This document shows positions 5,761-44,977 of a stretch of DNA of 64,000 nt, piece by piece. The translations under genes and the position numbers were made by a program. The first letter of the stretch is position 1. Every line of letters begins with the position of its first letter. Below the pieces are notes generated by a model. It had not been told where the DNA came from. It did not search any database and saw only the letters and a program-made list of their open reading frames with translations. This stretch comes from Neocallimastix sp. 'constans' (Eukaryota), in contig JBODTK010000014.1 of the NCBI GenBank assembly GCA_050613775.1, positions 620,001-684,000 on the forward strand, written 5' to 3'.

Positions 5761-5767
5761 AAATTAA

Positions 5768-10500: not shown

Positions 10501-10837
10501 CAGAATTATCAATAAGATACAGTTTATCATTAACAAAGTCCAATATGAATCTATTTCTTTTTAATGAATCGATCCCAACAAGTAAGTCGAATAGGTCACT
10601 CTTTTCAATTACACGGAATTTTTCTTCGAACGTATAAGAGCCAATTTTTATCTTCAATTTATAAATGTCAGTATGTGTGTTTGTATTCGAGAAGGCTTGA
10701 AATATGGTTTCCATTATTCTACCTATTGGTTTTAAGGTGGATTTTAATTTTCTTAAAAATTCTCTTGATACCATATTAACACTGGCACAGGAATCTAACA
10801 AAATATCCGTATTTACTCCTTCTACCAATGTCTCCAA
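7584..10837 (-). pseudogene. pol: Frameshifted, 5'-truncated gypsy pol (PR-RT-RH-IN), F/G lineage
   Basis: Three ORF pieces: LLDSCAS protease and YIDD RT (9488-10837), TDAS RNase H (8648-9424), integrase core TDNG..E (7584-8393). Confidence 0.9.
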
Positions 10838-12978: not shown

Positions 12979-13991
12979 TGATTAACATTTTGATTATTAT
13001 TATTATAGTTATTATTATTAAAATAATTATTACTTGTTTTATTTTTAGTATAATAATTATTATTATTATAATTCTTGTTATTGTTTACGTGTGGGCTTGA
13101 ATGTTTCTTTCTTAAATTTTTATTACCATTATTATTTTTTAATTGGTCCTTACTTTTAATATTATTTTCAAATAAGATACACTTGGTATAAATATCACCA
13201 AGCTTTGTAGGGAATTCTTCCATTTTATCTATTTCTTCTTGGAACTTTGGGTGAAGTCCATTATAGAAAAATAAGACTAAAGCTTCTTCATCCCAAGACA
13301 GACCAGTAGTTAACGTTCTGAACTTTTCTATATAATTATTTATTTTACCATACGAATGTTTTAATTTTACTAACTGGATCTTAGCCAATTTTTTACTTGC
13401 AACATTCGTAAAAGTTTTCTTTATATCACTTAATAATTTCTTTAGTGTTCCTGGACGATTGTTCTCGTTATAGGTAGCAATATACCAATTTCTTGCGCCG
13501 TCTCTCAAACGAGATTTAACAAAGTTTATTTTTACTTCTTCTGGTAAACCTAAGTTGGGATAAGTTGAGAAAGTATCTTCATATAATTGACAGAATAAAT
13601 CGGTGTCATTAGTGTTACCTGAGAAGAATCCAGGTTCAGGTACTTGTTGCAAATTATTAGAATAACTATTTTTCATGATGACATCATTGTCTGCATCACG
13701 TCTGGTAGAAATAGAGGCGTTATCATCTTGATTTTGTGGTACAGATTGGCTAGAAGAGGGACCATCATTGGTACTAATTTTTATATCTAATTTCTCATTG
13801 AATATTTTAGTTAAATTAGAAAGTTGATTAATAATATTTTTATTATCTCTATTAAGTGTATAGAGTTTTTTCTGTAAGTCTTGATTATATTTATTAAAAT
13901 CTTCTTTTAATAAAAAGCTATCATTAACAGAAGAAGCTAATTCTGATACGGTAACTTGGGCGTCAGATCTTAACTTATTAACTTCTGACAT
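12969..13991 (-). CDS. gag: Gag of element K
   Basis: 340 aa ORF with PEPGFFSG...GARNW...FYNGL retrotransposon Gag motifs, between PBS and pol. Confidence 0.85.
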   Translation of the reverse strand: MSEVNKLRSDAQVTVSELASSVNDSFLLKEDFNKYNQDLQKKLYTLNRDNKNIINQLSNLTKIFNEKLDIKISTNDGPSSSQSVPQNQDDNASISTRRDADNDVIMKNSYSNNLQQVPEPGFFSGNTNDTDLFCQLYEDTFSTYPNLGLPEEVKINFVKSRLRDGARNWYIATYNENNRPGTLKKLLSDIKKTFTNVASKKLAKIQLVKLKHSYGKINNYIEKFRTLTTGLSWDEEALVLFFYNGLHPKFQEEIDKMEEFPTKLGDIYTKCILFENNIKSKDQLKNNNGNKNLRKKHSSPHVNNNKNYNNNNYYTKNKTSNNYFNNNNYNNNNQNVNQKN

Positions 13992-14066
13992 TGGGGCAAT
14001 GTCAGGTATTTCACTAGCCCAGACGTTCGTATAGTAAGATATATCAAGGTAGCAACTAAAACTAGG

Positions 14067-14076
14067 GTAAGGTTAT
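14067..14076 (-). promoter_or_regulatory. Self-priming PBS of element K
   Basis: ATAACCTTAC directly after the LTR, complementary to GTAAGGTTAT inside the LTR (14345-14354). Confidence 0.7.
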
Positions 14077-14789
14077 TGTTAAGATTTTGATATAATTTAT
14101 AGTTTAAATTTAAATAAAATAATATGGTTTATTAAAAAATATTCACTAAGTCGATATGTCTATATAGTAATATACTATATAGATATATAATAAAAATAAT
14201 AAATATTTAAATGTTTAGTTTAATAAAAATTTATTTATAATAAACTTTGATAATTAGAATTATCAAATTAATTTAATTTTAAATTTGTTTATTTTATTTA
14301 ATAATAAAATATCTATAATATATTACTATTAAGGTAATTTTACAATAACCTTACAAAGAACATAAAAGATAGATTTTTACATCTTTCTTTTATACTTTGT
14401 AAGTTACATAATAATAATATTTAATTATAAGATAGTAATAATATAGTAATATAAATAATAATAAAATATAAGGATAAATTTAATTATATAATTAATTTGA
14501 ATAATTGAATTTAATATAGATATGTTGTAAACATATATAAAAACATAATATAAATAAAATACACGTGACGTCAAATGTATCATTGAAATTAATTATTAAT
14601 ATAAACCTTATTTATTAATATTCTCAGAATTATTAGGCCTAAGATAACCCTTTAAATATTAAACAAGAATTTATATTAATTATTAATTATTTAAATATAT
14701 ATATTATTTATAATTAAATAAATAATATTTTTAATTATTGAAATGTAAATAACTGAAATTGAGATTTCAATTCAGTTATAATTTCAACA
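14077..14789 (-). mobile_element. 5' LTR of element K
   Basis: TGTTGAAA...CTTAACA on the minus strand; near-identical reverse complement of solo LTR 35110-35818. Confidence 0.9.
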
Positions 14790-14832
14790 ATTATTAATAA
14801 TAAAATAAAGATTATTAATTCATTCTTTACCA
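14790..14832 (-). mobile_element. Terminal remnant of a family G LTR
   Basis: Matches the last 43 bp of 37909-38922 (...CATTCTTTACCA). Confidence 0.75.
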
Positions 14833-14844
14833 ATTTATCAATTA

Positions 14845-15354
14845 TGATACGATATATTTTATTTATGTATCTAAATTAATATTTATTTTATTTTATTTGG
14901 ACGATAACAGTAGGGAATAATTGACAAAATAATATATTCTAATATTATATAGAATAATACACACAATAATAATATTCACACTTTAATATTTAGTTTATTT
15001 ATTTTATTTATTTATTATCATTCATCAATAAAAATACATCATCAATATAAATATTTGTTAACTAGTTAAAATATAATTAAATCATTCAATAAAATATAAT
15101 TAATACTAAAATCTCTTATGTTATTAATATAAACTAAATATATAAAACTACACTAAACTATACTAATAAACATGTTTTTAGGTTAAATTATTAATAAAAC
15201 TAGATTAATATTAATAAAAGAACCATTCTTTAAACTATTATAATTTACTAACTATATATATTATTACTAAATTATTATTAACCAATAAGATTTCATCAAA
15301 TAATTTCTAACCTAAATTTCACTAAATTATGGTATTTATGGTAGTACCGTATCA
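14845..15354. mobile_element. Solo LTR family H
   Basis: TGATACG...CGTATCA terminal inverted repeat; TSD ATTA both sides; homologous to 34619-35869. Confidence 0.8.
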
Positions 15355-16219
15355 ATTATGTTATGGTTCGGGTTTTATTAAAATTTTTATTTAATTATTT
15401 ATTTTTAATATTTTTCTGTCTACATTTTAATTATTGAAAAACTTCACTTATTTATACTTTTTGAAAAAAAATAAATATGTAAAGCCTTTCTACATTTTAT
15501 TATCATATTTAAAAAAAATAATTTACTATTACTAATTAATTAAAATTTTATATTAATTTAAATTAACTAATTCATAAGTATTTTTATTTTAATAAATTTT
15601 GTTTATATAATTTTATATTATTTTTCATATACTAAAACTAAATTATTTAATATATACGAAAATTAACAAACATAATTTAAAAAGATTTTACAGAAAAATA
15701 AAGTTATTTTAATCAAGAATGTTAATATAATATTCTTATTTTTTATATAAAATAAATTTAAAAACTATAATATATTTAATATTTATTATTAATCAATTAA
15801 GATTTGATTTTATTTGTGGGAAATAAAAATATTAAATAATCAATTTAAAAATAAAATAAAATACTAAAAAAAAAATACAAGTTTAATATTGATACAATAT
15901 AATAATAATATAATAATATATTTGAAAATAAAAATAAAATATTAATATTGATAATAAACACTTTAATAAAATAATAAAATTTAAGGTTAAATTATAGATA
16001 TTGATATTAATAATAAAAATATAGAATTATTGATAATATTTTAGAAACTTTTAATAAAAATAAAAAAAAAATATATTTAGAAAATATTTTAGTATAGAAA
16101 ATATAGTAAAGTAATATTAAGTAAAGAATAATATAATGGATTATAAAGTAAGTTGAAATTCTAATTAATAATCCATTATATGTTCGTTCTTTACCAAGAT
16201 GCCCCCACTAAGACTCAAG

Positions 16220-19200
16220 CTAATCTATAGCTGAGTTATACTTTACTATATTTTTCAAATGAACATTACGATTCATTTGAATCATAGTATTTGGGTCCGC
16301 AAGTGTTACGGTATTAAATTGTTTTTTTATTACTTTTAAAGAACCGACAAAATAAGGTTCTAATTTAGAACGACTAAAATTTCGAACAAGAACTAAATCA
16401 CCGATTCTTATGTTTTTGGAATTTTTCATGCTATTTTTTTTTCTTCCCTTCGATTGGCCCAATATTTACTTGCGTTCTTTACATTTTCAGCTGCTTCCAT
16501 GGTCCACCTATAATGTGAGATAAATTTTTCTAAAAGAATTTCATCTGAAGATTTATTCACTCCTTGTGTAGGTCTAGCAGCAATGTCGAAAGGCTGTTGA
16601 TCCTCATGACCATAAACTAATTCGAAGCTAGAATGTTTGGTTACAGAATTCTTTGAAGTTCTAAGGGCCCACAAGGCTGAAGGTAATACTTCATCCCAGT
16701 CTTTATTTTCTTCACCAAGTAATCTCAATAATTTACCAATTTCTTTATTCCTATTTTCAACCAATCCATTACTTTCTGGGTGATAGGTAGTGGTAAATTT
16801 TACGTAAACATCATAAGTCCAGGAATATTTTAGTCATATCCGATGTGAATTGAACGCCATTATCCGTTGTAATGACTTGAGGAACTCCATGTCTAGCGAA
16901 AACATTTATTAAAAACTTAATGATGTCCTTAGATGTAATATTTTCAGTAGGTTCAGCCTCCACCCACTTTGTGAAATAATCCACCGCAACAATGATATAT
17001 TGGTTTTTATTACCAGTCTTTATTAAGGGACCAATAATATCAAGTCCAAGATGAGTAAAAGGGCCTTCAACTTCTGTTGGAATGTTTTCGGTTGGTTCTG
17101 GATATGGCTGAGGGCGATTTAACTGACATTTTTCGCATTTTGAAATTATCCGTTTTATATCGTTGACCATATCATTCCAGTAGTAACTTTTTCTAAGTCT
17201 TTGATATGTTTTATAATAACCTTCATGGCCAACATGATGTGCTTCGAGAATTAATTTTAGTTTTTCATTTGTTTCGGTAACAAGTTTTCTATAATTATTT
17301 CCATCTATAAAATAATCTATACCATCAATCTTTGTAAATTTTTCTTCAATAAATTCTTTAATTACTTTAGAAAGTGAATCATTTTCATCATCTTTATTCG
17401 TTTTTATAGCTAATACCTTTTGTTCTTTATCGTTCTTCATTCTAGATAAAGCGTCGGCTACTACATTCTTTTTACCTTGCTCATAGCGAATATCCACTTT
17501 TAGCATACTTGCAGTCAAACACCATCTTGCTTGTCGTGCATTATTCGGTTCCTTATTATTAAATAAACCTAGTAAAGGTTTGTGATCTGTAAAAACTATG
17601 GTTCTAAAGGGGCTTCCCATAATATAAGGTTTTAATTTAGTAATACAATAATATAAAGCCGTTCCTTCCAAATCGGTTATTCCATAATTCTTTTCTGCTT
17701 TGGTTAAGCTACGGCTAATGAAATGAATCGGGTGTTCTATTTCCGATTCGTCTTTATGCAATAAAACTCCACCAATACCTTCATATGATGCATCTGTTCG
17801 AATAATGAATTCTTTGGAAAAATCAGGATATTTTAAAATAGGAGCATTAATTAATTTTTCTTTTAATTTGGTAAAACTTTGTTTTTGTTCATTATTCCAT
17901 TTATATTTTACGCCTTTTCTTAATAGCTTACAAAGAGGAGCTGAGGTTTGAGCACATTCATTTATAAAGTTCCTATAATATCCTACAGCACCTAAGAATG
18001 ATCTTAACTCATGTATATTCGTGGGTTCTTTCCAGGCTTTAATTGCTTCAATTTTACTATTTTGAGGACTAAGACCCTTAGTAGAAATCATGTGACCAAG
18101 AACTTCAACTTCCGTTTGCATAAAGTGACATTTTTCAATATTAATTTTTAATTTATGTTCCTTGAAGATGGCTAATACCTGTTTTATGTGTTGGATATGT
18201 TCTTCGACAGTTTTTGAATATATAAGTATATCATCAATAAAGTTGAAAACGCATTTTCCGATTAAAGGAAATAAAATTCTATTCATCTCCCGTTGGAAGG
18301 TAGCCGGAGCTCCAGTTAATCCGAAAGGCATAACTTTGAATTGGTAGTTGCCAAATTTGGTTGTAAAACTGGTTATTTCAACACTTTCTTCGTCCATTAG
18401 GATTTGATGGTAACCTGAGTATAGATCCATAGTAGTAAAGATTTTGGCACCATCTAGACTGTCAAATATCTCGTCAATATATGGAAGGGCATAAGAGTCT
18501 TTTTCGGTTAGATCATTCACCTTGCGGTAGTCCACACACAATCTCCATTTTCCATTAACCTTTGGGACCACAACAACAGGTGAAGACCATTCTGAATAAG
18601 ATGGTACAACTAGCTTTTTCTTAATAAGTTTAATTAGTTCTTCTTTAATAATATCAGATTTAAATTTGGTTACTCTGTAACATCTTTGTTTAACAGGTTT
18701 TGCGTTCGCTTTCAAGTTAATTTTATGAGGGGCCAAGTCTGACGGTGTTAATTCTTCAGAAGATGTCGCTATAATGTCCAAGTTTTCTTCAAGTAATTTT
18801 ACTATTACATCTTTATAATCTTTACAAAGACTTGCTAAAAATTTTTCATCATGGATATACTCTTGCGGAGATAGACCTTCAAGTTTCTTTAATTCATTAG
18901 TTGTGTCTTCATCTTCAAGTATTTTCCTTACTATACATACTAATTCTTCTTCTTCTTGGGAATTATTATTAATAGGAGCTATAACGTCGATTAGTCCTTG
19001 AGAATTAAATTGACATAAACTATATCTTATAGGATGGATAAAAAGATTGTGTTCTACTTGAGTTTGAAAATTAATCAACAAATCATAAAATGGGTCATCA
19101 TCATCAATTATTCGAAAGTCTACTATCATTTTATAATCATTAATCTTAACAGGTATTCGTACAATGATTCCTTCCGAATACTCATCATTCTTAGTCGCTA

Positions 19201-20335
19201 AACGTATCCTTCCACGACTAATACCTACTTCTTCATAATTTCCAGGTAATTTCTCATAAAATTTTTTTGTGATAACATTGAGGTTACTACAAGAATCAAT
19301 AAGTGCTTTACCAGGAATTTCATCTACTGTTACATCAACCATGGCAATATCTTCTGAGGTTTCCTTACTTTTGCTAATATAAGAGTGATCAATATTATTT
19401 ACCAAAGTAGCAGCAGCAATAGTATTGTTTAATGCACCTATTATTTTCTTTTCAGGTTTTTCTAATTTTAATCCTTGACTTACTTGACTTCTGACTTTTG
19501 GAGAAACATTGAGGAGCTGACCGAAACTAATATTACACTTGGTTTCATTCAAATCTTGTAAAACATCATTTTCTTCCTGATCCTTACACATCTTGATGTT
19601 CCTAAGCGTTCTACTAATTGTTGCTTTTTCTTTAGGCTCTTGAAAATCTATGAGCTTCTGTAATGTAATATTCTCATGACCTTCGTCATTAAGCTTTTCA
19701 GGAACTTCAATAACTTCCATTTCATTGACTTGTTTTGTTTTAATAATTTTATCGTTTTCATTATCGATTAATTTATTTAATCGTTGATGCATTTTATCAC
19801 TAGTAGTACTGATGCTATTTCTTTGTTTTGAAGAATCCAGACTTTGCTTTTCTCTTATAGTAATATTATCCTCCCTTTCCTTTCTTTTTCCCTTGTTATT
19901 TCCAAAGTTAGCTCTTTCTTTATTTCGAATTTGTTTTTCTTTGGCTTTCTCAATATTTATATTAGGCTGCGCCATTATCGAAGGATGTAGTTGATTTTTA
20001 TTTTTAACAATTATTCTATTTTCTATTTCTTTCTCTTTTATCTTTCTTATTGCAGGAGTTGTTATAGGGGTAGGATTATCTTTGAGACTTTTACGTTGTC
20101 TCTTTTCATTATTTTCACTAGTTTCATCGTTAGTCGTCAACTTCCTTTTTGTCGCACTAACTATAAATTCTACATCATTCTCATTATCGGATTCTTTGTG
20201 AGTTTCATTAGTGTAGGAAGAATCTTCTTTTTCTTCCTTATTATAATCTTTTGTACTACTAGGAATAGTTTTGTATTGTAATGAAGCTATTTTATTTTTA
20301 TAGGGAGTGCTTCCTCTCCCTTTTAGTGGTTTAAA
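16220..20335 (-). pseudogene. pol: Pol of element F (PR-RT-RH-IN), two frameshifts in integrase
   Basis: ORFs 16811-20140, 16426-16764, 16220-16462 are colinear with intact pol 38946-42995; breaks may be mutation or assembly error. Confidence 0.9.
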
Positions 20336-21216
20336 GATTTTCCACTATATAACCGTTTCTTATTTTCTTGAATAATTGCATTTAACTTAGGACAATTATA
20401 CTGCAAATGTCCTGGATCGCTACAATAAAAACAGGCTTTAATGGTAAGATTTTTCATTTTTTTTGTTAAGTCCTCCAATTCGTAATCTTTATTTCTTTTT
20501 GGGCTTCTAACTTCATAATTCTCTCTTACTACCTTTCTGTTGTTTTGATAATTATTCCTGATATTTATTCTTGGGTTGACAATTTCAGTTGAGTACTCTT
20601 TTGAGGGTCTCAAATTCATTACTCTATCAACTTTTTCGGCAATGTCAAACGCCCGATTTAAAGAAATGTCATCCTTAAGGGAGACCCTTTTCCAAGCTTC
20701 TTTATTGTTCCTAAGAGCATCAATATAATCGAGAACACTGACTCGCTTCTTTCTTTTCTTATCTAATTTCAAATATATGGATCGGAAACGAGTATTAAAG
20801 TCTTTTACTCGCTCATTTCTTTTAATTCTTAAAGCACGGAGCTCACGAAGTAACATATTCTGGTCTTCTTTAAGACCATAAAAAGTTTCTATTGCTTCTA
20901 CAATTTCCTTTAAGGAAGGATATTCATCTTTTTTCTTTTCTTCTGAATCAGATTCTTCTTCTTCTTCGTCCTCACTTTCTGATTCAGAATCGGTACTGTA
21001 ACTGTCAATTAAATCCTGGATAACTTCGCGAGGCTCTCCAGTAGACGTGAGTAAGCAGGCGGTAAAAATCTTTTTGGGATCAGTAACTTCCTCAAGTTTT
21101 ATCCATAATCGGATTTCTGATTCCCAAGATTTGATATCGAGATTTTCCTTTGAAATTTTCTCGATATCTTTTAATTCCTTTTTTAATTCTTTAAAATTGA
21201 TTTTATTTTCAGCCAT
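20323..21216 (-). CDS. gag: Gag of element F with CCHC zinc knuckle
   Basis: CFYCSDPGHLQYNC; first ATG at 21216 (MAENK) aligns with gag 42992-43936. Confidence 0.9.
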   Translation of the reverse strand: MAENKINFKELKKELKDIEKISKENLDIKSWESEIRLWIKLEEVTDPKKIFTACLLTSTGEPREVIQDLIDSYSTDSESESEDEEEEESDSEEKKKDEYPSLKEIVEAIETFYGLKEDQNMLLRELRALRIKRNERVKDFNTRFRSIYLKLDKKRKKRVSVLDYIDALRNNKEAWKRVSLKDDISLNRAFDIAEKVDRVMNLRPSKEYSTEIVNPRINIRNNYQNNRKVVRENYEVRSPKRNKDYELEDLTKKMKNLTIKACFYCSDPGHLQYNCPKLNAIIQENKKRLYSGKSLNH

Positions 21217-22500
21217 TTGAAAATTTAAAAATGGTATTAATGCTATGATATCCAATTTAAAAATATGTTTACTTTAAAAATATATTTAATAACAAAAAAA
21301 AATAAATTTATCTTTGTTTTATACTAATATAATTATGGACTCAGAAAACCCTCTGACAATCCAATTCTTTATTCCAATAATAATTCAGACTCAGAATCTC
21401 TCTCTGAAAATCTGATAAATTAATTCAGACTCGAAAACACCCTCCGAAAATCTGAAACAAAAAAAAAAAAAATTAAAATTCAGACTCAAAAACGCAATTT
21501 GAAAATCTGAAGCTTTTTATTATGAATTTTAATATTTATTATATTCTCTTAAGCATTAATACACAGAATATGTATATCTTGATTTTTTTTTTTATTTATT
21601 TGTAGTAATAACTTATTTATTTAATTTTATTCAATATATTTATTTCCTTTATTAAAATAATTAATATAACATAAAACAAATTGTATAAATACTTAAATAA
21701 TAATAATAATATATATTTATTTTTATTTTTATTTTTTTTTTTTTTTTTTTTTTTGTATATATTTAATATTCTATTAATTCTTTGTTATAACATTTAATGA
21801 AATGAAATATTAAATAAAAAGTTAAAATACAAGCCAAACTATATAGTGTTGAACCATCAAATATATAGCTTGTTAACCCTTCTTACAATAAGTCCCCTTA
21901 GCTCTTTATTGATAAGTTGATAATGTCGATTGCTAATTATTAAGAAACTTAATAAAAAGAAGGTAGCAATATTAAATTCTTTTTAATTTGGCTAACTTAT
22001 TGTTAGTAATAAAGAAGATAATAACGTATCCTTCCCAGTATCAACAAGATCAAAACAATAAAGTATTATGTGTGGGTGTTCAACTATCCCGCGTAGAGAG
22101 TTGTAAGACAGCTTATTTATATTTTTCTTTTTAATTAAAATTTAATTAATTATATAACGAATAATAGAAAATTTAACACACAAAAAAAAAAAAAATTCAA
22201 TTATAAAAATTTCAATAAAAAAAAATTTAATTATATAAAATCATAAAAATAATACACTTATTTGAAAAATAATAATAATAATCTAATTTTATATATTCTA
22301 TATATATATATTGTACATGTATAATTAAAAAAAATAAAATAAACTGATAAACATAAAAAAATTACAATTTATTATTTAGAATTAAAAAAAAAAAATTTAT
22401 TTATAAAATTTATTATTATTTAAAAAAAATTAAAAATTTGTACTACAAAAAAAAAATTTTTGCTTATTATTTTAATATTTATCATTAATTAAAAAAAAAA

Positions 22501-22543
<43 letters not shown>

Positions 22544-23972
22544 TATATAAATCTATATCTATGATAATACTATTGGTTAAAAAAAAATTTTTTTTTTTTA
22601 AAAAGTTTGTTCTACACTAAAGAAAAATTTAATTTATTATTTATTAAAAAAAAAAAATTTATTAATGAAATATGAAATATTTATTATTTTAATAAAAGGA
22701 AAAAATATATATATTTTTTTATTTTATTGCAAAAAAAAAAATAATAATAATAATAATAATAATAGACGAACAAATTTATAAAAGCCTAAAATAAAAATAA
22801 AAAAAAAAACTATATATTTTAACGTCACTTCGCAAGAATGACCAGGGTTTTATCAGGGATCGAACCTGACCCACCTCTTATTTTCTACGCGAGTGAACAA
22901 ACTATCACCTGTTGAAGTGTGTAGTTGCCTTCAGCGTGAAGGTTTTATAGTTCTAGGGCGTATTTGCCTAATTGTCAAGGATTTGTTCCTTGAGATACTC
23001 GCTGTATGTAAAATATTTAATAATTTGAATACGTATTTAAATGTAATGTAATGTAAATTATTGTGGATAAAAATGTTTTCCAAATTTTTAATATAAATTT
23101 AAATGTATTCCAAATTATTAATTTAAATAATTTTCTCAAAAATTTATGACTAAATTATTTGGAGAATTTATGTAACAATTACTCAGTTGAATCACGAAAC
23201 TTCATAAATTAAAAAATAATTAGTCATTAATTAGTTAAATTAAAATAATTAAAGGAATATTGCCTTTTCCGTTTGTTTACAAAAACTTGCCGTTTTGTTT
23301 ACTTGTCTTTTAAATTATAGAAATTCTAAAAATAAAAATAGCAAGTTGTGGTTTAGTAAATTGGTTTTCACAACTTGGCAAAATTTAAATTAAATATATG
23401 GATAGAATATATTTAATCATATAATTAATGAATTAAACTCTAAATTTTCTTCATAGAAAATTTTAGAAAAATTAGATAGTTTTAAATAGGATTTATATTA
23501 AAATAATTCATAACATTTCATGTAATTTATTAAATAATGTAATTGATAATATAAAATAATATGTTTATGTAATTTATTAAAATTTATTTTGATTTAAAAC
23601 TTTATTTTGAAAAAGTATAAAAAGAGTTAATTTTTCAACTATTGAACGATAGTTGGAAAATCGTATAGAATAGGAAAATTTAAATTTTATTATTAGTCTC
23701 GTAACTATTATTAGAATAGTTACTTTCTTATAAAACAATTATATTATAGTTTGTAAAATCTTAACTGCTAGTGGGAACTCCGGAAAGGACCCTGCGTTAC
23801 CCAGTTAAGTGGTTGTTGAAAATTAGTTAATAAATAAAATAAATAAATAAAAGAAATTAAAAAAGAAAATAATTAATTAAATAATAGAGGTTTAAGATAT
23901 AGTGTTATTAGTGTAGTAAAGTTAGTTTAGAATAGCCACAAACCTAGACTTGATAAGTACTTTATTTTACAC

Positions 23973-24546
23973 TGTAACGAAACTCATAACTAGTAAATTA
24001 GTAATTATGGTTCAATGGTAAGTTATCATAACCATCGGGCTGAACCCTTAGGGTTCGACACCTACTCTTTCCAAATTTTAATAACTTTTTATTTATTATA
24101 ACTAGAATATTAAAGAAATTACTAGTTTTTATCGGTTAAACAATTGAACCGATAAAACTAGAAAAATCTATTTTATTAATATTTTTTATCATTTTTTATC
24201 TAAGATTCATTTTCTAGAAAGAAAACTTGTTTTCTTTAATTTTCTTTAATTTTCTTTTATTTCTAATAATTACTAATAACAACTGATAACTTAAAATAAT
24301 TAATTTTCCTGAAAAACTATAAATAGGTGTAAAATTTCATAATAAAATATTTTTACTTGTGCTTTTATTAATTAATTTTAAAGTAATTTAAAATATTACA
24401 ATGATTAATTAATAAAATAATAATTTACATTTTTTACTAATAAAAAAACTTATTTTAATAAAACATATTTTAAATTACTTTAGTGTCGAGAACCTTTCGT
24501 GTAAAAAACCTTATAACAATCTTAAGTAACATTAAGATTTGTTACA
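23973..24546 (+). mobile_element. Solo LTR family C nested in the leader of element F
   Basis: TGTAACG...GTTACA; same A/B-box layout as 3902-4545; no clean TSD. Confidence 0.65.
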
Positions 24547-24747
24547 CTCGCGTTTACAATCTACAAAACCTTGCAAAATTGTAAATAAGAGTTTATGAAA
24601 TTAATATCCTGCAAGCTAACACTGTCTTACTCAATATTATTAACTTCGTAAATTTGTTAACTTTTTATTATTTTTTTTTTTATTATTATTTTTTTTATCT
24701 ATAATCTATAATTAAATAAAGTTACTACAAAAACTAAAGTTTTCCAA

Positions 24748-24791
<44 letters not shown>

Positions 24792-25073
24792 ATAACTTTT
24801 ATTATTATTAATATTAATATTAAATTATTAATTATTATTATTTAACAAAACTTATGGATAATCTGATAGTATACCCTGTCTGACGTGCAGCTTGCCTCTT
24901 CACGGCGTCATGCCACGCGGGTACCACGGCTACTGTATTCAATATAAAATACAGCAGTCCAGAGCCTACTAGCCCAATTACTATGTAGGTTAAACTTAGC
25001 CCGGAAATCTATATCCAAGGCTTTGTTAAATAATTTAATTAATAAATAATATTAAATTTTATTTTTCTAATAA

Positions 25074-25091
25074 TCCCCGATATCTCCACCA
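25074..25091 (-). promoter_or_regulatory. PBS, probably tRNA-Ala
   Basis: TGGTGGAGATATCGGGGA, complementary to a tRNA 3' end ...TCTCCACCA; identical at 45676-45693. Confidence 0.8.
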
Positions 25092-25943
25092 TAAATTATG
25101 TTATGGTTCGGGTTTTATTAGAATTTTTATTTAATTATTTATTTTCAATATTTTTCTGTCAACATTTTAATTATTGAAAAACTTCACTTATTTATACTTT
25201 TTGAAAAAAAAATAAATATGTAAAGCCTTTCTACATTTTATTATCATATTTAAAAAAAATAATTTACTATTACTAATTAATTAAAATTTTATATTAATTT
25301 AAATTAACTAATTCATAAGTATTTTTATTTTAATAAATTTTGTTTATATAATTTTATATTATTTTTCATATACTAAAACTAAATTATTTAATATATACGA
25401 AAAGTAACAAACATAATTTAAAAAGATTTTACAGAAAAATAAAGTTATTTTAATCAAGAATGTTAATATAATATTCTTATATTTTATATAAAATAAATTT
25501 AAAAACTATAATATATTTAATATTTATTATTAATCAATTAAGATTTGATTTTATTTGTGGGAAATAAAAATATTAAATAATCAATTTAAAAATAAAATAA
25601 AATACTAAAAAAAAAATACAAGTTTAATATTGATACAATATAATAATAATATAATAATATATTTGAAAATAAAAATAAAATATTAATATTGATAATAAAC
25701 ACTTTAATAAAATAATAAAATTTAAGGTTAAATAATAGATATTGATATTAATAATAAAAATATAGAATTATTGATAATATTTTAGAAACTTTTAATAAAA
25801 ATATAAAAAAAAAATATATTTAGAAAATATTTTAGTATAGAAAATATAGTAAAGTAATATTAAGTAAAGAATAATATAATGGATTCTAAAGTAAGTTGAA
25901 ATTCTAATTAATAATCCATTATATGTTCGTTCTTTATTAATTA

Positions 25944-26865
25944 TGTTGAGGTTCGGGACAGAATAATAATAAATATAGAAATAAACACTAAAATAAAAAA
26001 AAATTAAAAATTAAAATATATCTTTTTTTAAAATATTTTATTTATTTATTTAATAAAAATTATTCAATTAAAAACTAAAAATAAATTAATTTCTTTAATA
26101 AGATGATATCTTTAAGCATATTTCTTTTATTCAAAATACAATTTTCTCATCTATTTATATTTTTTTTTATCGTTAGAAATGGTCAAGCCATTTCTTTAGA
26201 ATATATTAGAATTTTAGTTTGAATTGTATTTAAATTATAAATTCATAATCTATTCTATTATAATAAATAATTATTACATATTATTAAATTCTAAACTATT
26301 TATTATTAATTGTAGTGATAATATATTTTAAAAATAATTTTATTACTTTTACAGAACTATTAGTAATAGAGTATTATTTAATTTTATACTATTTTTAAAT
26401 AAAAGTATTTTAGATTATTATCTATTATTAATCTTATTATAAATAGGGTGTATTTTGGAAGGAAGTATTACTAATTTTAATGACAAGGATCATGGATTTA
26501 AGTAAAATATTTTTAAATCATTATTAATTATATTAATTTTTATTAATAATAAATAATCTGTATTAGTAATATTTGTAAAATAAAATTTTCTTTAATAATA
26601 AAATATTGATAGAATAAATCATATTAATAAAACTAGATATTGATAATAATATTGATATTAATAATATAGTATTAATTTTAATAATAAAGTATTGATATTA
26701 ATAAAGAATTTATATTAATAATAATAAATTTAATATTAGTAATAATTTGGCAGTAATAGAACATAAGAAAGTTCCCCAAGTAAGGAAATAAATAATTTAA
26801 TTTTAGTGGTTAAGTTATTTTTATGAAAAATAATAAAATTAACATTATTTGTTCATTCCTTAACA
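25944..26865 (-). mobile_element. Solo LTR family I (related to F)
   Basis: TGTTGAGGTTCGGG...TTAACA; TSD ATTA recovered after removing later CAATT insertions. Confidence 0.75.
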
Positions 26866-28636
26866 ATTTGTAAGAAACTTAGATAAATTTATTATAAAAT
26901 TTATCTATCTTTCTTATTTAATACATTAATTTAATACATTAAATTATTGTATTTATTTTAACCAATAATATTTAATTATTAATTTATATATATTTGATTC
27001 TCTTGAGTTCTCTTCGAGAAATCAAGAGTTATTATTTTAGAATTTTTATAATAAATAATAATTCAAATAAAATAATTAATTAATAAAACAAAACCTTTTA
27101 ATAAAACATATTTTATAAATATTTGTGTCTTTTATTCCTTTTGTGTTATTGTTTATTATAAACTTTCTATAATAAACTCTATCTTATATTTAAGTTAAGT
27201 ATAATTATTTATTTATATTATTTTATATTTATTTAATTATATTTAATAATTTTATTTTCTCAAATTAATGTTAATTAGTAATAATTAATGTTAATTTGTA
27301 TGTTGAAATTATAACTGAATTGAAATCTCAATTTCAGTTATTTACATTTCAATAGTTAAAAAATATTATTTATTTAATTATAAATAATATATATATTTAA
27401 ATAATTAATAATTAATATAAATTCTTATTTAATACTTAAAGAATTATCTTAGGCCTAATAATTCTGAGAATATTAGTAAATAAGATTTATATTAATAATT
27501 TCAATTATCTACATATGACGTCACATGTATTTATTTATATTATGTTTATATATATGTTTAAATCATATATATTAACTACTATTTTTAATTATTCAAATTA
27601 ATTATACAAATTAAATTTATTTAGTTATATTAAATATTTTAAACATATCGATATTGTTATTATCTTAATATTTTATTAATATTCATATTACTATATTATT
27701 AATATCTTATAATTAAATATTATTATTATGTAACTTACAAAGTATAAAAGAAAGATGTAAAAATCTATCTTTTATGTTCTTTGTAAGGTTATTGTATTTA
27801 CAATAATTATATACTAATAATTCATTAAATAAATATTTTCATTAAATCCTTCAAAGAAATTATTATTTAAAATATTTTTAGATATTAAGTGTTTAAATAA
27901 CTTAACTATTTATCTTATATTATTTTAATTATATTATTATTAATTAATCATTGTTGGATTATTAATATATAATTCAACATATTAACCTAGTAACGTTATT
28001 AAAATCACATATATTTTATATCGTATTATCATTGACACTCTATATGTATTCTATATTATTATATCATTTATATCACTATCCTATCATATCACCGTCCTAA
28101 TAATTTATCATATATTTGTTAATACAACCTACACACGCACACCAATCATATAATAACATACATAATATAATATATTTTAGCTAGACACAGCCCTAATATT
28201 CATATAACCTTATATAGACATATGGCGAACCTTATATGTAACATACTATATTATTAACACATTTATAATCTCAGACAGCCAATCAAATCATGACATATCC
28301 AATTTATACACCCTGCATCGATCTAATTACCATCTCATGACTTATCTTAATTAATTTAATTTAAACACCATAAACGCCATCTATCATCTATCATACACTT
28401 TTTAATTAACACTCTATACTATAATCAATTAAACATATTAAGCATACCTAACATACACACTTTAATCAACACTAAACTTAATTATATACACTTTTATAAA
28501 TTTATTTAATATCTTAATCTTTTATTCATTTATTTAATTATTTTTTAACAAACAATCAAACTACACTACACTTTAATGAATAAGGATGTTTTTACATAAT
28601 TGAAGTATATTGTTAAACATTTGTATTTTATCCATA

Positions 28637-29056
28637 TCATTTAAGAATTCTAATCTCTTCATAATTATTACATAAGTTTTTAATTTGATTGATTTCTTCA
28701 TTAATCCTAAACTTTCTTGCAATAAATCTTTGGTAGTTTACCCTTGGATTCTTCAAAATGTTCGCCTCATAGTCCAAACGTTCTTGAAAGTCCTCTAAAC
28801 AGTCGTACCATAATTCTAAGTCATTCTTAATATTTAAAATAAGTCTACTATTTTGCATGTTTAATAAAGATAATTTTCTAGTTAACTGTCTTTTTATTTC
28901 ATAATAATTTTCATTATCCTTTTCTAATGTTACTATTTCTAGTTTAATATCTAAAAGTTCTTTAATATGATCTACACTAACATCTAAATTTCTTTCAAAA
29001 GATGAATAATGTAAATCAAACTTTTCGAAATAAGTGTTAAATAATCTTCTAGACAT
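28637..29056 (-). CDS. Hypothetical helical/coiled-coil protein, 139 aa
   Basis: ATG-started ORF of normal complexity amid AT-rich DNA; no motif recognised. Confidence 0.55.
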   Translation of the reverse strand: MSRRLFNTYFEKFDLHYSSFERNLDVSVDHIKELLDIKLEIVTLEKDNENYYEIKRQLTRKLSLLNMQNSRLILNIKNDLELWYDCLEDFQERLDYEANILKNPRVNYQRFIARKFRINEEINQIKNLCNNYEEIRILK

Positions 29057-29747
29057 TTGTTAAATAAAATAAAAAAGTTTATATTTTGTTGATGTTAAAA
29101 AAAAAATCATAAACTTTATTCTTGTTTATATGTATAGTTTGAATCTATCGCTTAATCGGTTATTTAATATTTAACCGGATATCATCAAAGGTTACTTTTC
29201 GTTAATTCAAGTTGTTTGTTGTTGTTTTCTTAATAATCCTAATCCTATTAAAAAATGTTAACTATAACCCTTTGTATCAAGTTTATCCTTTTATTTAATG
29301 ATTATAATATTCATTCATTTAATTTTTAAATTAATTATTAAAACTATTTTTAGATATTAACTATTTGTCTACTAATGTTATTGTTAAATTAAAAAAATTA
29401 TTATGATTCATTTTTAACAAAATTAACACACACACACTATTACGTCATATTAACCAATCATTGTAAAAATTTATTTTGGGTTTTAATATAATTTATTAAT
29501 AATATAATAGAATATAACATACATCATATACATAAACATATACAATCATACCACAATAATAAAACATTTTTTTTTCAACGTTTATATTTTGCAAATAGCC
29601 AATAATATAAAATAAATAACAATAAATAATAATAGATAATAATAAATAATCACATATACCATCATATTTCAAATTTTATTAATAAAGCATTTCATTCAAT
29701 AATTCATTATTTATTTTAACTAATTAATAATCATACCAACGTTTTAA

Positions 29748-30779
29748 TCAAACGTATTTAGAATAACGCAAACCCCTAAAGGTAACGTCAATTGTAAAAT
29801 CAAGACAAAAAGTACTATCTTGTAAAAGATTGTTAAATTCAATTTGTCCATTACTAAACTTATAAGTAGGTCCATCACCAGTAATAACATTTATTAAAAA
29901 TGTTGGTTTAAAGGATACAGATGGATTATTTACAGGATTAGTAGGTAAATTAGTATTCCAACCTAAAGATTCATATCTTTCTTCAATATATTCATTTGTA
30001 TCTTTATTAAATGTTTTATACATATTATAAACATTACTATCTTTATCACGAACATATTGAGCCTTAATACTACTAACTGGAACATACTGCGATTTCTCAA
30101 CTAAAGATTCTGGATACAAATATCTTGTTAATCTCAAACTACTACCAGAACCAAGATTTCTTATTAAACTTGATGAATAAGTAGTAATTCTATTACCAAC
30201 AGTACAAAAAAACTTTTGATCAGTAAATGATATATAATCCTCTATATTATCATCTTCATCAAGAGGATCAGCATTAGAATCATAATGATTAGCTGGTAAA
30301 TATATCGGAGATTCTGAATCAGGTTTTCCATACGCAAATTGAATATCTTCTTTAGATAAACCAGTTCTATCCCATGCAGTAACAACAGTTAATTGTTTAG
30401 GATAAACAAAACCACTATTAGTACCATCATCAGGAGAACTCTGAGGCCAATCAACAGATGTTACATCCACTTTAACAGCATTAATTTTAATTTGATCATA
30501 TATTTCTGAAATATTTTTAAAATAATCACTTTGTCTTATAACTTCATAAATATTAACAAAAGCACAACCGGTATTTCTAATTGTGATTAATCTCTTATCT
30601 AAAAGTTCATTATCTTCATAAAAAGGATTAGCGTGTAAATCGATAGCTTCAAGATATTGTCCACATTGAACATTCATCTTATGTCTTAACACAATATTAC
30701 AAGAATCATTTTGGTTAAATGATGCTCGCATATTACCAACAGACTTCCGTCTGGTAATACCTGACCGAAAATTAATCAT
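29748..30779 (-). CDS. Putative CRESS/circovirus-like ssDNA virus capsid protein, 343 aa
   Basis: Intact ORF; basic N-terminus, F-x5-YDQIKINAVKV strand motif, LTRYLYP and terminal VTFRGLR resemble single jelly-roll CRESS capsids (recognised by eye). Confidence 0.6.
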   Translation of the reverse strand: MINFRSGITRRKSVGNMRASFNQNDSCNIVLRHKMNVQCGQYLEAIDLHANPFYEDNELLDKRLITIRNTGCAFVNIYEVIRQSDYFKNISEIYDQIKINAVKVDVTSVDWPQSSPDDGTNSGFVYPKQLTVVTAWDRTGLSKEDIQFAYGKPDSESPIYLPANHYDSNADPLDEDDNIEDYISFTDQKFFCTVGNRITTYSSSLIRNLGSGSSLRLTRYLYPESLVEKSQYVPVSSIKAQYVRDKDSNVYNMYKTFNKDTNEYIEERYESLGWNTNLPTNPVNNPSVSFKPTFLINVITGDGPTYKFSNGQIEFNNLLQDSTFCLDFTIDVTFRGLRYSKYV

Positions 30780-30812
30780 AAAACTATTTTATATCTTAAT
30801 TTTAACATTGTA

Positions 30813-31455
30813 TGTCAAAGTTTTAAGATAATTTGGTCTTAACGATTAGGTCAAGATGCCAAATTATAGTAATTAATTAATAATTTAATTTTATTCTTAT
30901 TTAAAACATATTGTTATTAGTAAATTTTATAAATAAGTTTTTATTTAAAATATAAATTTTATTTAATCTTAATAATATTTTATTACATTATTATTTTATA
31001 TAATTATTACTATAATTTAAATTACAATAATCCTACAAAGGATTAATCAAAAGATTTAAACATGTATTTATATAAAATAATTAATTATTAAAATATTAAT
31101 TATTAATATGAATATGTAATAATATTAATATAAGTTTGATATTGATAATATAAACTAATATAAATATTTAATATAAATAAAATATAAGAATATAACTAAA
31201 TATTATATTTTATAATTAAAATATAATATGTAGAAATTAATTTAATGACAGTCACGTGTTTACATTATTTAATCTATATTAAATTCAATATGTTAATAAC
31301 ATTTAGTAATTAGTTGGCCTAGACTAATTCCTAAATATTTTAATAAAGTTAATTTAATAATAATTATTATATTATTATTTTTTATTAATATTGAAATTCA
31401 AATAACTGAATTATCGAAATTGAAATTGAATTGAAATTCAGTTATTATCTTAACA
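30813..31455 (-). mobile_element. Solo LTR family B
   Basis: TG...CA; TSD TTGTA 30808-30812 / 31456-31460. Confidence 0.85.
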
Positions 31456-31509
31456 TTGTAGTTAAGAAATTATTTATAATTAATTTTATAAGTAATTTCT
31501 TACACAATT

Positions 31510-32536
31510 TGTAAGAAACTTAGATAAATTTATTATAAAATTTATCTATCTTTCTTATTTAATACATTAATTTAATACATTAAATTATTGTATTTATTTT
31601 AACCAATAATATTTAATTATTAATTTATATATATTTGATTCTCTTGAGTTCTCTTCGAGAAATCAAGAGTTATTATTTTAGAATTTTTATAATAAATAAT
31701 AATTCAAATAAAATAATTAATTAATAAAACAAAACCCTTTTAATAAAACATATTTTATAAATATTTGTGTCTTTTATTCCTTTTGTGTTATTGTTTATTA
31801 TAAACTTTCTATAATAAACTCTATCTTAATATTTAAGTTAAGTATAATTATTTATTTATATTATTTTATATTTATTTAATTATATTTAATTTTATTTTCT
31901 CAAATTAATGTTAATTAGTAATAATTAATGTTAATTTGTAGTTAAGAAATTATTTATAATTAATTTTATAAGTAATTTCTTACAATAATAACTCTTCTTT
32001 TTAGGAAGAAAATATTTTATAAATAATTTAATATGAATATAACAAAAAATAATAATTATAATTATAATGGAATAATTAAATTAAATAAATTCATTTTATA
32101 TTATTTACGAAATTTTTTCTTTCTCTCAATTTAAATTTATAAATTTTTTTTTTGTTTATTTTTTATTTTTCTTTTAATTGTTTATGTTTGTTTATGTCAT
32201 ATATATATTATTTATTTTGTTTAATTTATTATTACATTAACTAACAATTCTTTATTATTATATATATTAAACATTATAACTTTATAATAATATGACAACA
32301 CTTATTCTGTTTACTTTGCCTATTTACTTTTAAAAATAAGTCTTTATAAATTTCATAAAAATTAACAATATTAAATACTAACTATTTTACTTTATTTTAT
32401 TTTATATAACATATTTATCTATTATAATATTATATTTATATTATATTTTAATATTATATAATTGTTTTTATATATAACATTATATACATTATATACATTA
32501 TATACATTATATACATTATATATATATATTTTTCTT

Positions 32537-32577
<41 letters not shown>

Positions 32578-32738
32578 AAATAAAATAAAACAAAAATAAA
32601 AACAAAAATAAAAACAAAAAACAAAAACAAAACAAAAAACAAAAACAAAAAATAAATAAAATAAATTAATAATTTAAAAGATAAGTTGTTCAGTTTTCTT
32701 TTCTTTAAAATAAATAAAAATAAAAAATAAATAAATTA

Positions 32739-32783
<45 letters not shown>

Positions 32784-34612
32784 AATAAATAAATAAAATT
32801 ATAATTATGGTAAATAAAGTAATAATAATAATAAATAATAATAATAAAAAAAAAGTTTTTAATATTGATCATACGAACGAAAATAAAATTTTAAAAATTA
32901 TAAGATATATTTAAATATATAATTACAATGTTCTATGATCACATATAGATATTAACACGTGGGCTGAAGTGATATAAAAATTGAAATTCACTTCTATGTA
33001 ATTGAAATAATATATTATTATTAATAATATAATTGTTAATTACTAATTGCCCTTTGTTAAAACAGATATCGGCAAAAGCTATATCTCGTTATATCTATTA
33101 AAAAAAAAAAAAAAAAAAAAAAATACATATATATATATATGTAATATAAAAATTATAAAATATTATTATTATTTATTTAATACATATTTCAAAATATACA
33201 TATAAAATTTAATATAAAAAATTATAAAATATTATTATTTATTTATTTAATAAATAATTCATATGTATAATTTAAATTATTACTTATTTATTTATCTAAT
33301 GAATAATATAACATATATATAATATAAATAATAAAATGTTATTATTTATTTAATAAATATGAAAAATATATAATATATAATATATAATTTAAAATTATTA
33401 TTATTTTCATTCATTTAATGAATAATATACAATATATATATATATTGTAAAATTAATTATTATTATTATTTATTTATTTATTAATACAAAATATATATAA
33501 TATATAATATAAATTTATAAATTATTGTTCATTTAATTATTTATTTAAAATAAATTTTAATTCAAATTTTAAATTTCAATTTTTTAAATTGAAATTGCAA
33601 TTAAATATTTATTTTAATTTTATTTAAATTTTATTTCTTTTTAATATTTCTTAATTTATTATTTCTTAAATTGTTCTTCTTTCATTGAACAATTCAAATG
33701 AAAAGGAGCAATGTAAGAAATACAAATAAATTTATTAATAATTTATTTACATTTCTTAGTTATTATAATTTATTTAATTTAATATTTATTTATTCATTTA
33801 ATAATATAGTCATTTTATTTAATTTTATATTTATTTATACATTTAATAATTATAGTTATTTTATTTAATTTTATAATTATTTATTCACTTACATTTATAT
33901 ATTAGTTTAGAAAACAATATTAAGGTTTTTCCCAAGTTAATTGGTTTTACTTAATATTGATTCGTCTAGAGTTTTTCCGCTAATCTTTTCTCTAGATGTT
34001 AAAAAGTTAAGGTTAGCAAAACTTTCAATAAATTATTTAATTTTATATTTTTTTTGGTTAATTATAATTTTTATTTTAAATATACTACTTCCTATATAAT
34101 AATGAATTTATACAAATTCATTAAGTAAAGGGAGCAATGTAAGAAACTTAGATAAATTTATTATAAAATTTATTTATCTTTCTTATTTAATACATTAATT
34201 TAATACATTAAATTATTGTATTTATTTTAACCAATAATATTTAATTATTAATTTATATATATTTGATTCTCTTGAGTTCTCTTTGAGAAATCAAGAGTTA
34301 TTATTTTAGAATTTTTATAATAAATAATAATTCAAATAAAATAATTAATTAATAAAACAAAACCCTTTTAATAAAACATATTTTATAAATATTTGTGTCT
34401 TTTATTCCTTTTGTGTTATTGTTTATTATAAACTTTCTATAATAAACTCTATCTTAATATTTAAGTTAAGTATAATTATTTATTTATATTATTTTATATT
34501 TATTTAATTATATTTAATTTTATTTTCTCAAATTAATGTTAATTAGTAATAATTAATGTTAATTTGTAGTTAAGAAATTGTTTATAATTAATTTTATAAG
34601 TAATTTCTTACA
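31510..34612 (+). mobile_element. Non-autonomous LTR element E (LTRs 31510-31984 and 34138-34612)
   Basis: Two 475-bp LTRs, PBS ATAATAACTCTT 31985-31996, PPT AAAGGGAGCAA 34127-34137, TSD CAATT, no ORF. Confidence 0.9.
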
Positions 34613-34618
34613 CAATTA

Positions 34619-35869
34619 TGATACGTATCTTTTATATTTAAAGATGTATCTAAATAATTTTATTTGTTTGGACGTTGTCAGAAGGGAATTATTAACAAAA
34701 TAATATATTCTAATAAATATAATAATAACACATAATGTATAAATATAAATATATAATTTAAATGTAAAGATTTGTCTTTATTTATTTATTCTTATTTCTT
34801 TATTTATTTTTATTACATTATTCTCAATGTTTACAAAAATATAAAAATACAAGTTATATATTTATTATTATCTTTCTCACTAACTATCTAATTATACACT
34901 TAATAATTAATATTTAATACTCTATAAACTATTATATTTTCTACTAATAAACCTGTTATTTTGAAGTATCTTTATTATATATTTCCTATATTATAACAAA
35001 GAACTCCTCGTTTTATTATTAATGAATTATCAAAATATGTATCTAACTATTTAGTCTTATTTAATTATCTACCAATCATTATTAATTTTTAATTTATTAC
35101 TTTAACTAATGTTGAAATTATAACTGAATTGAAATCTCAATTTCAGTTATTTACATTTCAATAATTAAAAATATTATTTATTTAATTATAAATAATATAT
35201 ATATTTAAATAATTAATAATTAATATAAATTCTTGTTTAATATTTAAAGGGTTATCTTAGGCCTAATAATTCTGAGAATATTAATAAATAAGGTTTATAT
35301 TAATAATTAATTTCAATGATACATTTGGCGTCACGTGTATTTTATTTATATTATGTTTTTATATATGTTTACAACATATCTATATTAAATTCAATTATTC
35401 AAATTAATTATATAATTAAATTTATCCTTATATTTTATTATTATTTATATTACTATATTATTACTATCTTATAATTAAATATTATTATTATGTAACTTAC
35501 AAAGTATAAAAGAAAGATGTAAAAATCTATCTTTTATGTTCTTTGTAAGGTTATTGTAAAATTACCTTAATAGTAATATATTATAGATATTTTATTAAAT
35601 AAAATCAATAAATTTAAAATCAAATTAATTTGATAATTCTAATTATCAAAGTTTATTATAAATAAATTTTCATTAAACTAAACATTTAAATATTTATTAT
35701 TATTATTATATATCTATATAGTATATTACTATATAGACATATCGACTTAGTGAATATTTTTATTAAAACATATTATTTTATTTAAATTTAAATTAAAAAT
35801 TATATTAAAATCTTAACAACTAATTTCTAAAACTATTTCTAATAATGTTTTTAGTGTGGTATCGTATCA
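34619..35869. mobile_element. Solo LTR family H, interrupted by 35110-35818
   Basis: TGATACG...CGTATCA; TSD ATTA (right copy split by a later insertion). Confidence 0.8.
35110..35818 (+). mobile_element. Solo LTR family K
   Basis: TGTTGAAA...CTTAACA; TSD ACTAA 35105-35109 / 35819-35823. Confidence 0.9.
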
Positions 35870-35872
35870 ATT

Positions 35873-36835
35873 TGTAAGAATCTATAATTATTTTTAAATA
35901 AAATAATTATATTTTCTTAGTTAAGTTATAATTATAACTTTATTTAATTATATAATATTTATTCATTTAAATATTATTAATAATTTATTAAACTCAATAT
36001 TAAATAATCATTAATTTAATACAACAAATTTATTTAATTAATTATTATTTATACATTTATAAATAATTATAGTTTATTTAATTATATATTTAATTATTAA
36101 ATTTATTAGTCTTAGTTTATTTATTTAATTAAATTGTAAACAAATATATTATGTATTCTAATATGTACTTAATAATGTATTCTGTATTTTGTTTATTAAT
36201 ATCATTATTATGTTATTTTCCTTATTTGTAAATTTATGATTTTATGGTCGAAATATCTTTTATTATTTTATTCTTTTATTTTCGATCAATTAAATTAGAT
36301 TAGCTAATCGGTCAATTAGGGTTTTTCCCAATCACTTTTTAAAAGTAATTGGTTTTACCTAATTGATACGATGATCGATATGGATAGAATATCGATCAAA
36401 AATCTTATCTAGGTTTTTCTCTCTAATCTTTTCCTAGATAAGAGATTTGTTAAGATTAGAAAACATTTTTTAATTTAACCTTATTTTTCAAAAAAGTATA
36501 AATAAAGCTCTTGAATTCTCTTTGAGAAATCAAGAGTTATTATTATAACAATTATAATATAGTAATAACATTAATAAATTTTTTATATTTCTATTTTAAT
36601 AAAGTAAGTTTTAATAAAAAACAAATTTAAAAAAAATAAAATAAAATAATCTTTTCTCTTTGACTATTTTGTGTTATTAGTTTATTATAATTAGTTATAA
36701 TAAACTCTCTCTTATAGAAGATAAGTATATTTATCTTTTTTTTGTTTTCTCAATTTAATAATAATTATTATTTAGTTATTATTAAGTTGTAGTTAATAAT
36801 TTAATTCTAATTAATTTTATAATTAAATTATTACA
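35873..36835 (+). mobile_element. Solo LTR family A
   Basis: TGTAAG...ATTACA; TSD CAATT 35868-35872 / 36836-36840. Confidence 0.9.
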
Positions 36836-36841
36836 CAATTA

Positions 36842-43675: not shown

Positions 43676-43706
<31 letters not shown>

Positions 43707-44911: not shown

Positions 44912-44977
<66 letters not shown>

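Follow-up and report, generated by a model that had tools for sequence, protein, structure and literature searches.

Ty3 of Saccharomyces cerevisiae is a Ty3/gypsy long terminal repeat (LTR) retrotransposon that makes 5-bp target-site duplications (TSDs) and inserts with base precision at transfer RNA (tRNA) genes. As described in PMC8632968, Ty3 cuts at positions −6/−2 from the transcription start site (TSS), with TFIIIB bound from −15 to −32, and its integrase carries a cage-less chromodomain that contacts Brf1 and acts as a ruler, together with a C-terminal domain (CTD) that contacts TBP. In this work, we analyzed a 64-kb stretch of DNA from the anaerobic fungus Neocallimastix sp. 'constans' (64,000 nucleotides of contig JBODTK010000014.1, hereafter the window), in which LTR elements of three families, designated K, B, and D, resemble Ty3 in type, TSD length, and precision, and were found about 50 bp further upstream of a proline tRNA gene than the Ty3 cut, most often at −65.

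Other tRNA-targeted elements share part of these features. The LTR elements recorded at the start site are Ty3, Tj1, Tca8, Tyl3, Ylt1, Tyl6, and DGLT-A, with Ty1, Ty2, and Ty4 assigned to a 1-kb window and Skipper-2 to the downstream side (PMC5911963). Like K/B/D, Ty1, Ty2, and Ty4 are LTR elements located upstream of the TFIIIB zone of tRNA genes; unlike them, they belong to the copia clade, occupy a periodic nucleosome window of ca. 1 kb, and are tethered through AC40, a subunit belonging to RNA polymerase III (Pol III). Tj1 of Schizosaccharomyces japonicus, from the Tf1/sushi self-priming group, has a self-priming primer-binding site (PBS) as K does and targets regions upstream of Pol III genes, self-priming having been described for both Tf1 and Tj1 (PMC4600332). 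The dictyostelid Skipper-2 is, like K, a chromovirus with a diverged chromodomain and targets tRNA genes (PMC5006619), but its insertions are on the downstream side of the gene, within windows that span tens of bp. Distances similar to that of K/B/D are given for the dictyostelid elements TRE5-A (37–90 bp upstream) and NLTR-B (39–64 bp), and the 40–90 bp zone is assigned there to non-LTR elements only, TRE5 and NLTR-B (PMC5006619). TRE5-A, whose ORF1 protein binds TFIIIB subunits, shares its tRNA genes with the proximal LTR family DGLT-A; unlike K/B/D, TRE5 and NLTR-B are non-LTR elements with no integrase and with broad windows, and the orientation of TRE5 is fixed. Our literature search, made outside most subscription journals and repeat databases, found no publication on tRNA targeting in anaerobic fungi or on an LTR-element site near −60.

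Results

The window contains a 46.7-kb pile of LTRs and Ty3/gypsy coding regions upstream of the tRNA-Pro gene at 46727 (Table 1). This stack was peeled from the tRNA outward, one element at a time, each with one copy of its TSD, and the offset of every insertion was recorded as that of its first TSD base relative to the tRNA +1; all offsets are minimal distances that hold if the host LTR adjoined the tRNA at the time of insertion. A motif census revealed exactly five K/B/D LTRs in the window, four of them (at three sites) at −65 and one at −73. The five copies are thus inside 9 bp, with none further out or elsewhere, in host LTRs that are 475 to 1015 bp long. The three −65 sites are in different hosts, of families E, H, and T, with ATTAT, TTGTA, and ACTAA as the respective TSDs, and both orientations are used. 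In the H host, D and B2 have three TTGTA copies in common (27296, 30808, and 31456). At the four K/B/D sites the disrupted end was always the tRNA-proximal end of the host (1 in 16 by chance), which is the unique 3′ (U3) end in E and the unique 5′ (U5) end in H and A, and the three reconstructed upstream regions have no common motif at −45..−30.

The sequence-only reading of this DNA had proposed that four insertions in three host LTRs map to exactly −65, with position rather than sequence being fixed. The coordinates and offsets of these insertions were reproduced, but they correspond to three independent sites, and −65 is better taken as a mode, as one copy is at −73 and weaker cases range from about −63 to −67. 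The proposal that position is fixed held, given that LTRs of three families served as hosts, that the TSDs differ, and that either the U3 or the U5 end was hit. The value of about −73 for the copy at 4822, which that reading had placed on an uncertain reference, was also recovered. It requires ATTAA at 5763-5767 to be taken as −14..−10, because this left block is cut off from the tRNA by a break at about 10850. A deletion or recombination has interrupted the chain of TSDs there, and the pol of K1 (RNase H) abuts at that point the protease region of another gypsy element, F.

If insertions were uniform over the host LTRs, the probability of at least three identical sites out of four would be 7e-6, and it would be 3.9e-4, 1.6e-3, and 9.6e-3 for windows of 100, 50, and 20 bp, respectively (all values post hoc). 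The possibility that a single insertion had been counted several times was ruled out, since hosts and TSDs differ. Altogether, these data confirm the distal insertion site as real and, at this locus, well in excess of chance.

Table 1. Coordinates of the tRNA genes, K/B/D insertions, and host elements in the window
Feature	Position	Strand	Remarks
tRNA-Pro(AGG) #1, reference point (+1 = 46727)	46727..46798	+	ARAGORN; native flank ATTA = −14..−11
tRNA-Pro(AGG) #2	58507..58579	+	ARAGORN; full A-family element 51209-58490 at −15/−16
Proximal-site element stack, sets coordinate system	734..46712	.	E, G, T: 4-bp TSD; A, H: 5-bp TSD
K2 solo LTR, 709 bp, 97.9% to K1	35110..35818	+	TSD ACTAA both sides; 35819 = −65
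Host T2 solo LTR, split by K2	34619..35869	.	TSD ATTA (−14); T2 end at −15
D, LTR resembling that of K (77% to K); ~2.75 kb of additional DNA close to its end	27301..30807	+	TSD TTGTA; −65
B2 solo LTR, tandem to D at the TTGTA they share	30813..31455	−	31456 = −65
Host H, A-related solo LTR interrupted by D and B2	26869..31504	+	TSD CAATT (−16..−12); H end at −17
K1 5′ LTR, 713 bp, U3 end toward tRNA	14077..14789	−	Right TSD ATTAT at 14790 = −65; self-priming PBS 14067-14076
K1 host side	14790..14844	.	43 bp of E-LTR end, 8-bp remnant, ATTA (= −14)
K1 gag and pol (protease, reverse transcriptase, RNase H)	10822..14072	−	Integrase and 3′ LTR lost near 10850
B1 solo LTR, itself holding solo LTR X1	3488..4821	+	TSD ATTAT both sides; 4822 = −73
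A-family LTR hosting B1	2583-4879		Element peeling
Deleted K-clade element M	48560..51155	−	Retains self-priming PBS, beginning of gag, and C-terminal integrase remnant (51% to P0009)

A further end had been placed near −64 of the second tRNA-Pro gene by the sequence-only reading. The right end of the deleted element M sets 51156 at −63 of this gene, or at −64 if an extra T at 58491 is counted, in agreement with that distance, and the junction at 51155 is flanked on the right by an A-type LTR remnant and on the left by the deleted K-clade element. On the other hand, no LTR match was found for 50105-51155 (z −0.3 to K) and no TSD partner for the 51155 end. A brute-force scan for TG...CA ends with TSDs gave 1147 candidates, mostly due to chance, and none bounded by a TSD and ending at 51155 among the matches listed. 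The 51155 end is thus a tentative case of the distal site.

Comparison of the sequences indicates that K, B, and D are one lineage. The three families have a 21-nt terminal motif in common, and scoring of LTR likeness against shuffles, applied because low-stringency LTR BLAST was swamped by A/T noise, gave z values of 59 for K–D and 8–12 for K–B, with values below 5 for other LTR families. The PBS is complementary to 10 nt of the element's own LTR in K1 and M, and contigs of public runs X5 and X14 contain a B end followed by a matching PBS. The LTRs have TG...CA ends and 5-bp TSDs, with matching TSD pairs in K2, D, B2, and B1. Ty3 is tRNA-primed, unlike the self-priming K. In K1, the reverse transcriptase–RNase H (RT-RH) region follows a protease-like (PR) region, and relatives carry the integrase (IN) after RH, which corresponds to the gypsy order PR-RT-RH-IN. 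Among named proteins, the RT-RNase H of K is most closely related to one from JGI Orpinomyces (Orpsp1), with 85% identity, which points to an anaerobic gut fungus as the likely host organism. In a tree from a quick maximum-likelihood search with 66 of the 120 hits and four window proteins, K was placed in a 20-row clade (Shimodaira–Hasegawa-like approximate likelihood ratio test, SH-aLRT, 99) nested in a 38-row clade (99) together with pols carrying a canonical chromodomain, family A being a separate branch inside the latter. A search of viral contigs for K-clade pol revealed no relative. Within the extra DNA of D, a 343-aa open reading frame (29748-30779, minus strand) resembles capsids of single-stranded DNA viruses (ESM Atlas 0.93, clusters mostly of Cressdnaviricota; Pfam Circo_capsid, E 0.058). 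In addition, the likeness of B1 to B2 is 98.6% over one half and 85% over the remaining half, an unevenness that suggests a recombinant LTR.

The integrase C-terminus was studied in relatives of K1. Sixteen clade members extend to the end of the integrase, and in 14 of them an SH3-like CTD is followed by a tail of about 80 residues; alignment of these relatives showed that the first and third cage aromatics are replaced and that the strand is basic. No PF00385 chromodomain was detected at E up to 1 in any of the four K-clade pols, relatives of K1, that were scanned with Pfam; a profile of the tail alignment matched Ty3 Gag-Pol (E 9.8e-7) and cpSRP43 chromodomains (E 6.4e-4). The predicted model of the tail, with a predicted local distance difference test (pLDDT) value of 85.7, had Ty3 integrase as its top Foldseek match (E 7.4e-4), and model residues 88-146 matched the chromodomains of Chd1, Chp1, HP1, and cpSRP43 with moderate Z values (6.4-7.1). 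According to these predictions, the K-clade tail would consist of an SH3-like CTD and a chromodomain without the first and third cage aromatics, the architecture that docks Ty3 on TBP and Brf1. A CTD and a chromodomain fold without a full aromatic cage would thus be present in both Ty3 (PMC8632968) and the K clade. The A and E integrases of the window end after the CTD, without a chromodomain.

DNA of the window was present in 18 of the 24 listed public runs. Contigs of four runs were compared over 34980-35960 (15 of 42 joints listed), and contigs were also compared over 4740-5000 (24 of 188 loose ends listed). A joint that skips 714 bp (709 + 5) in runs X1, X5, and X4 corresponds to a T LTR without K, that is, to an empty T site, and a pile of loose ends (10 contigs) corresponds to an empty A site. 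In one contig of run X4, a K end is joined to a K start over a 5-bp spacer, as observed for D and B2. In both joints listed over 4740-5000, 48 bp separate a B-type end from the end of an A-type LTR, which is the offset of the H site, and in another pile of loose ends (6 contigs, run X1) about 52 bp separate a B end from an E end, equivalent to −67 provided that E ends at −15. Among the 15 of 42 joints listed, none linked K to the first 88 bp of an A LTR, which is not evidence of absence. One loose end of run X2 (4825) could not be placed.

The proximal stack, on which the coordinate system is based, showed matching TSD pairs in 18 out of 19 cases during peeling, the sole mismatch being that of the full A element at the second tRNA gene, where one extra T is present. 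These matches and the presence of empty sites in public contigs rule out a misassembly. Twelve elements of families other than K/B/D start at −14 (E, G, and T, with the 4-bp ATTA) or at −15/−16 (A and H, 5 bp). The A/H/E/G/T elements are therefore located within the start-site range of Ty3, Tj1, and DGLT-A (ca. 5–33 bp from the mature tRNA 5′ end), and K/B/D (−65, −73) are outside it. Two unrelated gypsy lineages account for at least 12 insertions made one after another at −14 to −16 of a single tRNA gene: A/H, which is self-priming and makes 5-bp TSDs, and E/G, which shows ca. 35% identity to K in pol, a 4-bp TSD (ATTA), and TGGT...ACCA-type ends; T has a 4-bp TSD as well.

Other features of the window were also recorded. 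Intermediate sites were found at 720 (−24), 2566 (−27), and 14833 (−22). The nested solo LTR X1 (3902-4545), of an unrelated family, maps to −349; this LTR and the candidates at about 23003-24546 inside the G element are nested solo LTRs that belong to other families, are distant from the tRNA sites, and are apparently untargeted. The segment 31510-34612 is a non-autonomous A-related element with 475-bp LTRs that are 99% alike, a self-priming PBS, a polypurine tract, and a 2.1-kb internal region without a long open reading frame. A 12-bp tandem array with open frames (45040-45680) is located within the 5′ internal region of the E element. The guanine-cytosine content of the window ranges from 10 to 36%.

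Discussion

The best description of the data is that a self-priming chromovirus lineage whose chromodomain is degenerate uses a distal insertion site, at which −65 is the mode and the positions show some spread. It is very likely that the tRNA gene is the anchor, whether the distance is set by TFIIIB, by the edge of a nucleosome, or within a broad upstream window. K/B/D resemble Ty3 in precision and likely also in the tether. Tethering at TFIIIB, which the sequence-only reading placed just upstream of the footprint of this complex, would fit the geometry of the site and the predicted Ty3-like CTD plus chromodomain of close relatives. We consider it somewhat more probable than the opposite that TFIIIB assembled at the tRNA gene tethers the K/B/D integrase through its upstream face, a putative interaction. 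In such a process, TFIIIC would set TFIIIB on any DNA lying upstream, here the end of the last-arrived LTR; the TFIIIC-directed placement of TFIIIB is sequence-independent (PMC6673722), which fits the lack of a common motif in the three upstream regions. Elements A/H/E/G/T would then cut at the start site, and K-clade intasomes would cut beyond the TBP-bound DNA, near the mirror image of the Ty3 site. A later proximal insertion would displace the host and the K-clade element as a pair from the tRNA, and each host LTR would record one episode because the pair is pushed away. With the TATA box set at −31 to −24, from oligonucleotide coordinates in the methods of PMC8632968, and the −16 of family A taken as the Ty3 site, the TSS would be at about −10 and the mirror site across the TATA centre would start at −63, compared with the −65 observed (our own arithmetic, with yeast geometry assumed). 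In an extended version, a re-purposed cage-less basic chromodomain would dock on TFIIIB in mirror image to Ty3, reading the upstream side of TBP/Brf1/Bdp1, with base-precise insertion at −65 genome-wide, three gypsy lineages in anaerobic fungi would share out one Pol III promoter as separate landing sites, and the stack would record the TFIIIB footprint of an early-diverging fungus; we regard this version as speculative and rather doubtful.

An anchor at the tRNA gene would also be compatible with a chromatin ruler, in which Pol III or TFIIIC holds the intasome and the cut is made where the first upstream nucleosome ends, as with Ty1 in nucleosomes. Such a ruler likewise predicts a distance independent of sequence, and it could accommodate an element predicted to retain the chromodomain fold as well as the −73 copy, which lies 8 bp more distal, close to one helical turn. 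Nucleosome positioning, however, is usually looser than three base-exact sites on three sequences, and this makes the edge of a nucleosome an unlikely determinant. The periodicity of Ty1 sites on upstream nucleosomes (PMC7459421) would offer a precedent, but Ty1 covers ca. 1 kb and three nucleosomes (PMC5911963, Table 1), compared with five out of five copies within 9 bp in the window; in this small sample, K/B/D depart from the Ty1 type both in this respect and in their gypsy order.

The tRNA link could alternatively be indirect and result from the pile-up of LTRs, the actual target being a site some 48–52 bp from an LTR terminus or a bendable A/T site such as TTGTA. The distances to the nearest host end are indeed alike (48, 50, 57, and 43 or 51 for K1), and D, B2, and both contig joints are on a homologous TTGTA-like site. 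Nevertheless, the offsets agree exactly in tRNA coordinates only, the hosts belong to different families and present either the U3 (E) or the U5 end (H, A), the four sites are all at the tRNA-proximal end, a 1 in 16 outcome by chance, and A4 had the TTGTA site, yet B1 used a site 9 bp away, so that targeting of LTR ends appears quite improbable. A preference for a broad window upstream of tRNAs, with the exact −65 being specific to this locus or a small-number coincidence, would resemble the 37–90 bp range of TRE5-A (PMC5006619, Table 1), and it is favored by the values of −63, −65, −67, and −73 among firm and weak cases and by the fact that a single tRNA gene supplies all the firm ones. Three identical sites out of four would be infrequent under this preference, according to the values given above for 50-bp (1.6e-3) and 20-bp windows (9.6e-3), and the upstream DNA was different at each event; we consider it the least probable of these explanations.

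The docking of the K/B/D integrase on TFIIIB has to be weighed against several observations that count against it. The firm distances come from one tRNA locus only, one of the four sites is at −73, and K1 at 14790 is limited to its right junction, as its left TSD partner is lost. Each B-junction joint is represented by a single contig (depths of 6.6 and 7.3, 24-25 letters on the short side, likeness 85) from one sample, possibly the source of the window, with no tRNA on the contigs, and the joints cannot separate position from sequence because they are on an H-homologous TTGTA-like site. The summed contig depth on K was tens of times that on T, a value that is not a copy number and that points to many K copies, most of them unplaced. 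A scan for the 21-nt K/B motif detected 32 loci in metagenome contigs and a single one in viral contigs; of these, 0/33 extend as an LTR or match the window by BLAST, as expected from chance hits. Regarding the tail, it was taken from relatives 78-87% identical in RT-RH, since K1 no longer has its integrase and coding sequence of B or D was not seen, and two of the 16 close relatives stop before it. Its match to a canonical chromodomain profile is weak (hhalign probability 5.6, E 0.0068), and Z values below 8 may reflect a common fold. Finally, the start-site families A and E have no chromodomain, which indicates that this domain is not needed for start-site targeting here.

None of the tRNA-targeted LTR elements in the table of the 2018 review (PMC5911963) has a sharp site near −65. 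A second precise ruler acting on the same host complex would make the control of insertion distance by the integrase C-terminus directly testable, in a lineage whose sister branches keep, lose, or alter the canonical chromodomain. Furthermore, a site outside the start-site zone might avoid the clash with Pol III reported for Ty3 (PMC8632968), which bears on the design of safe-harbour vectors.

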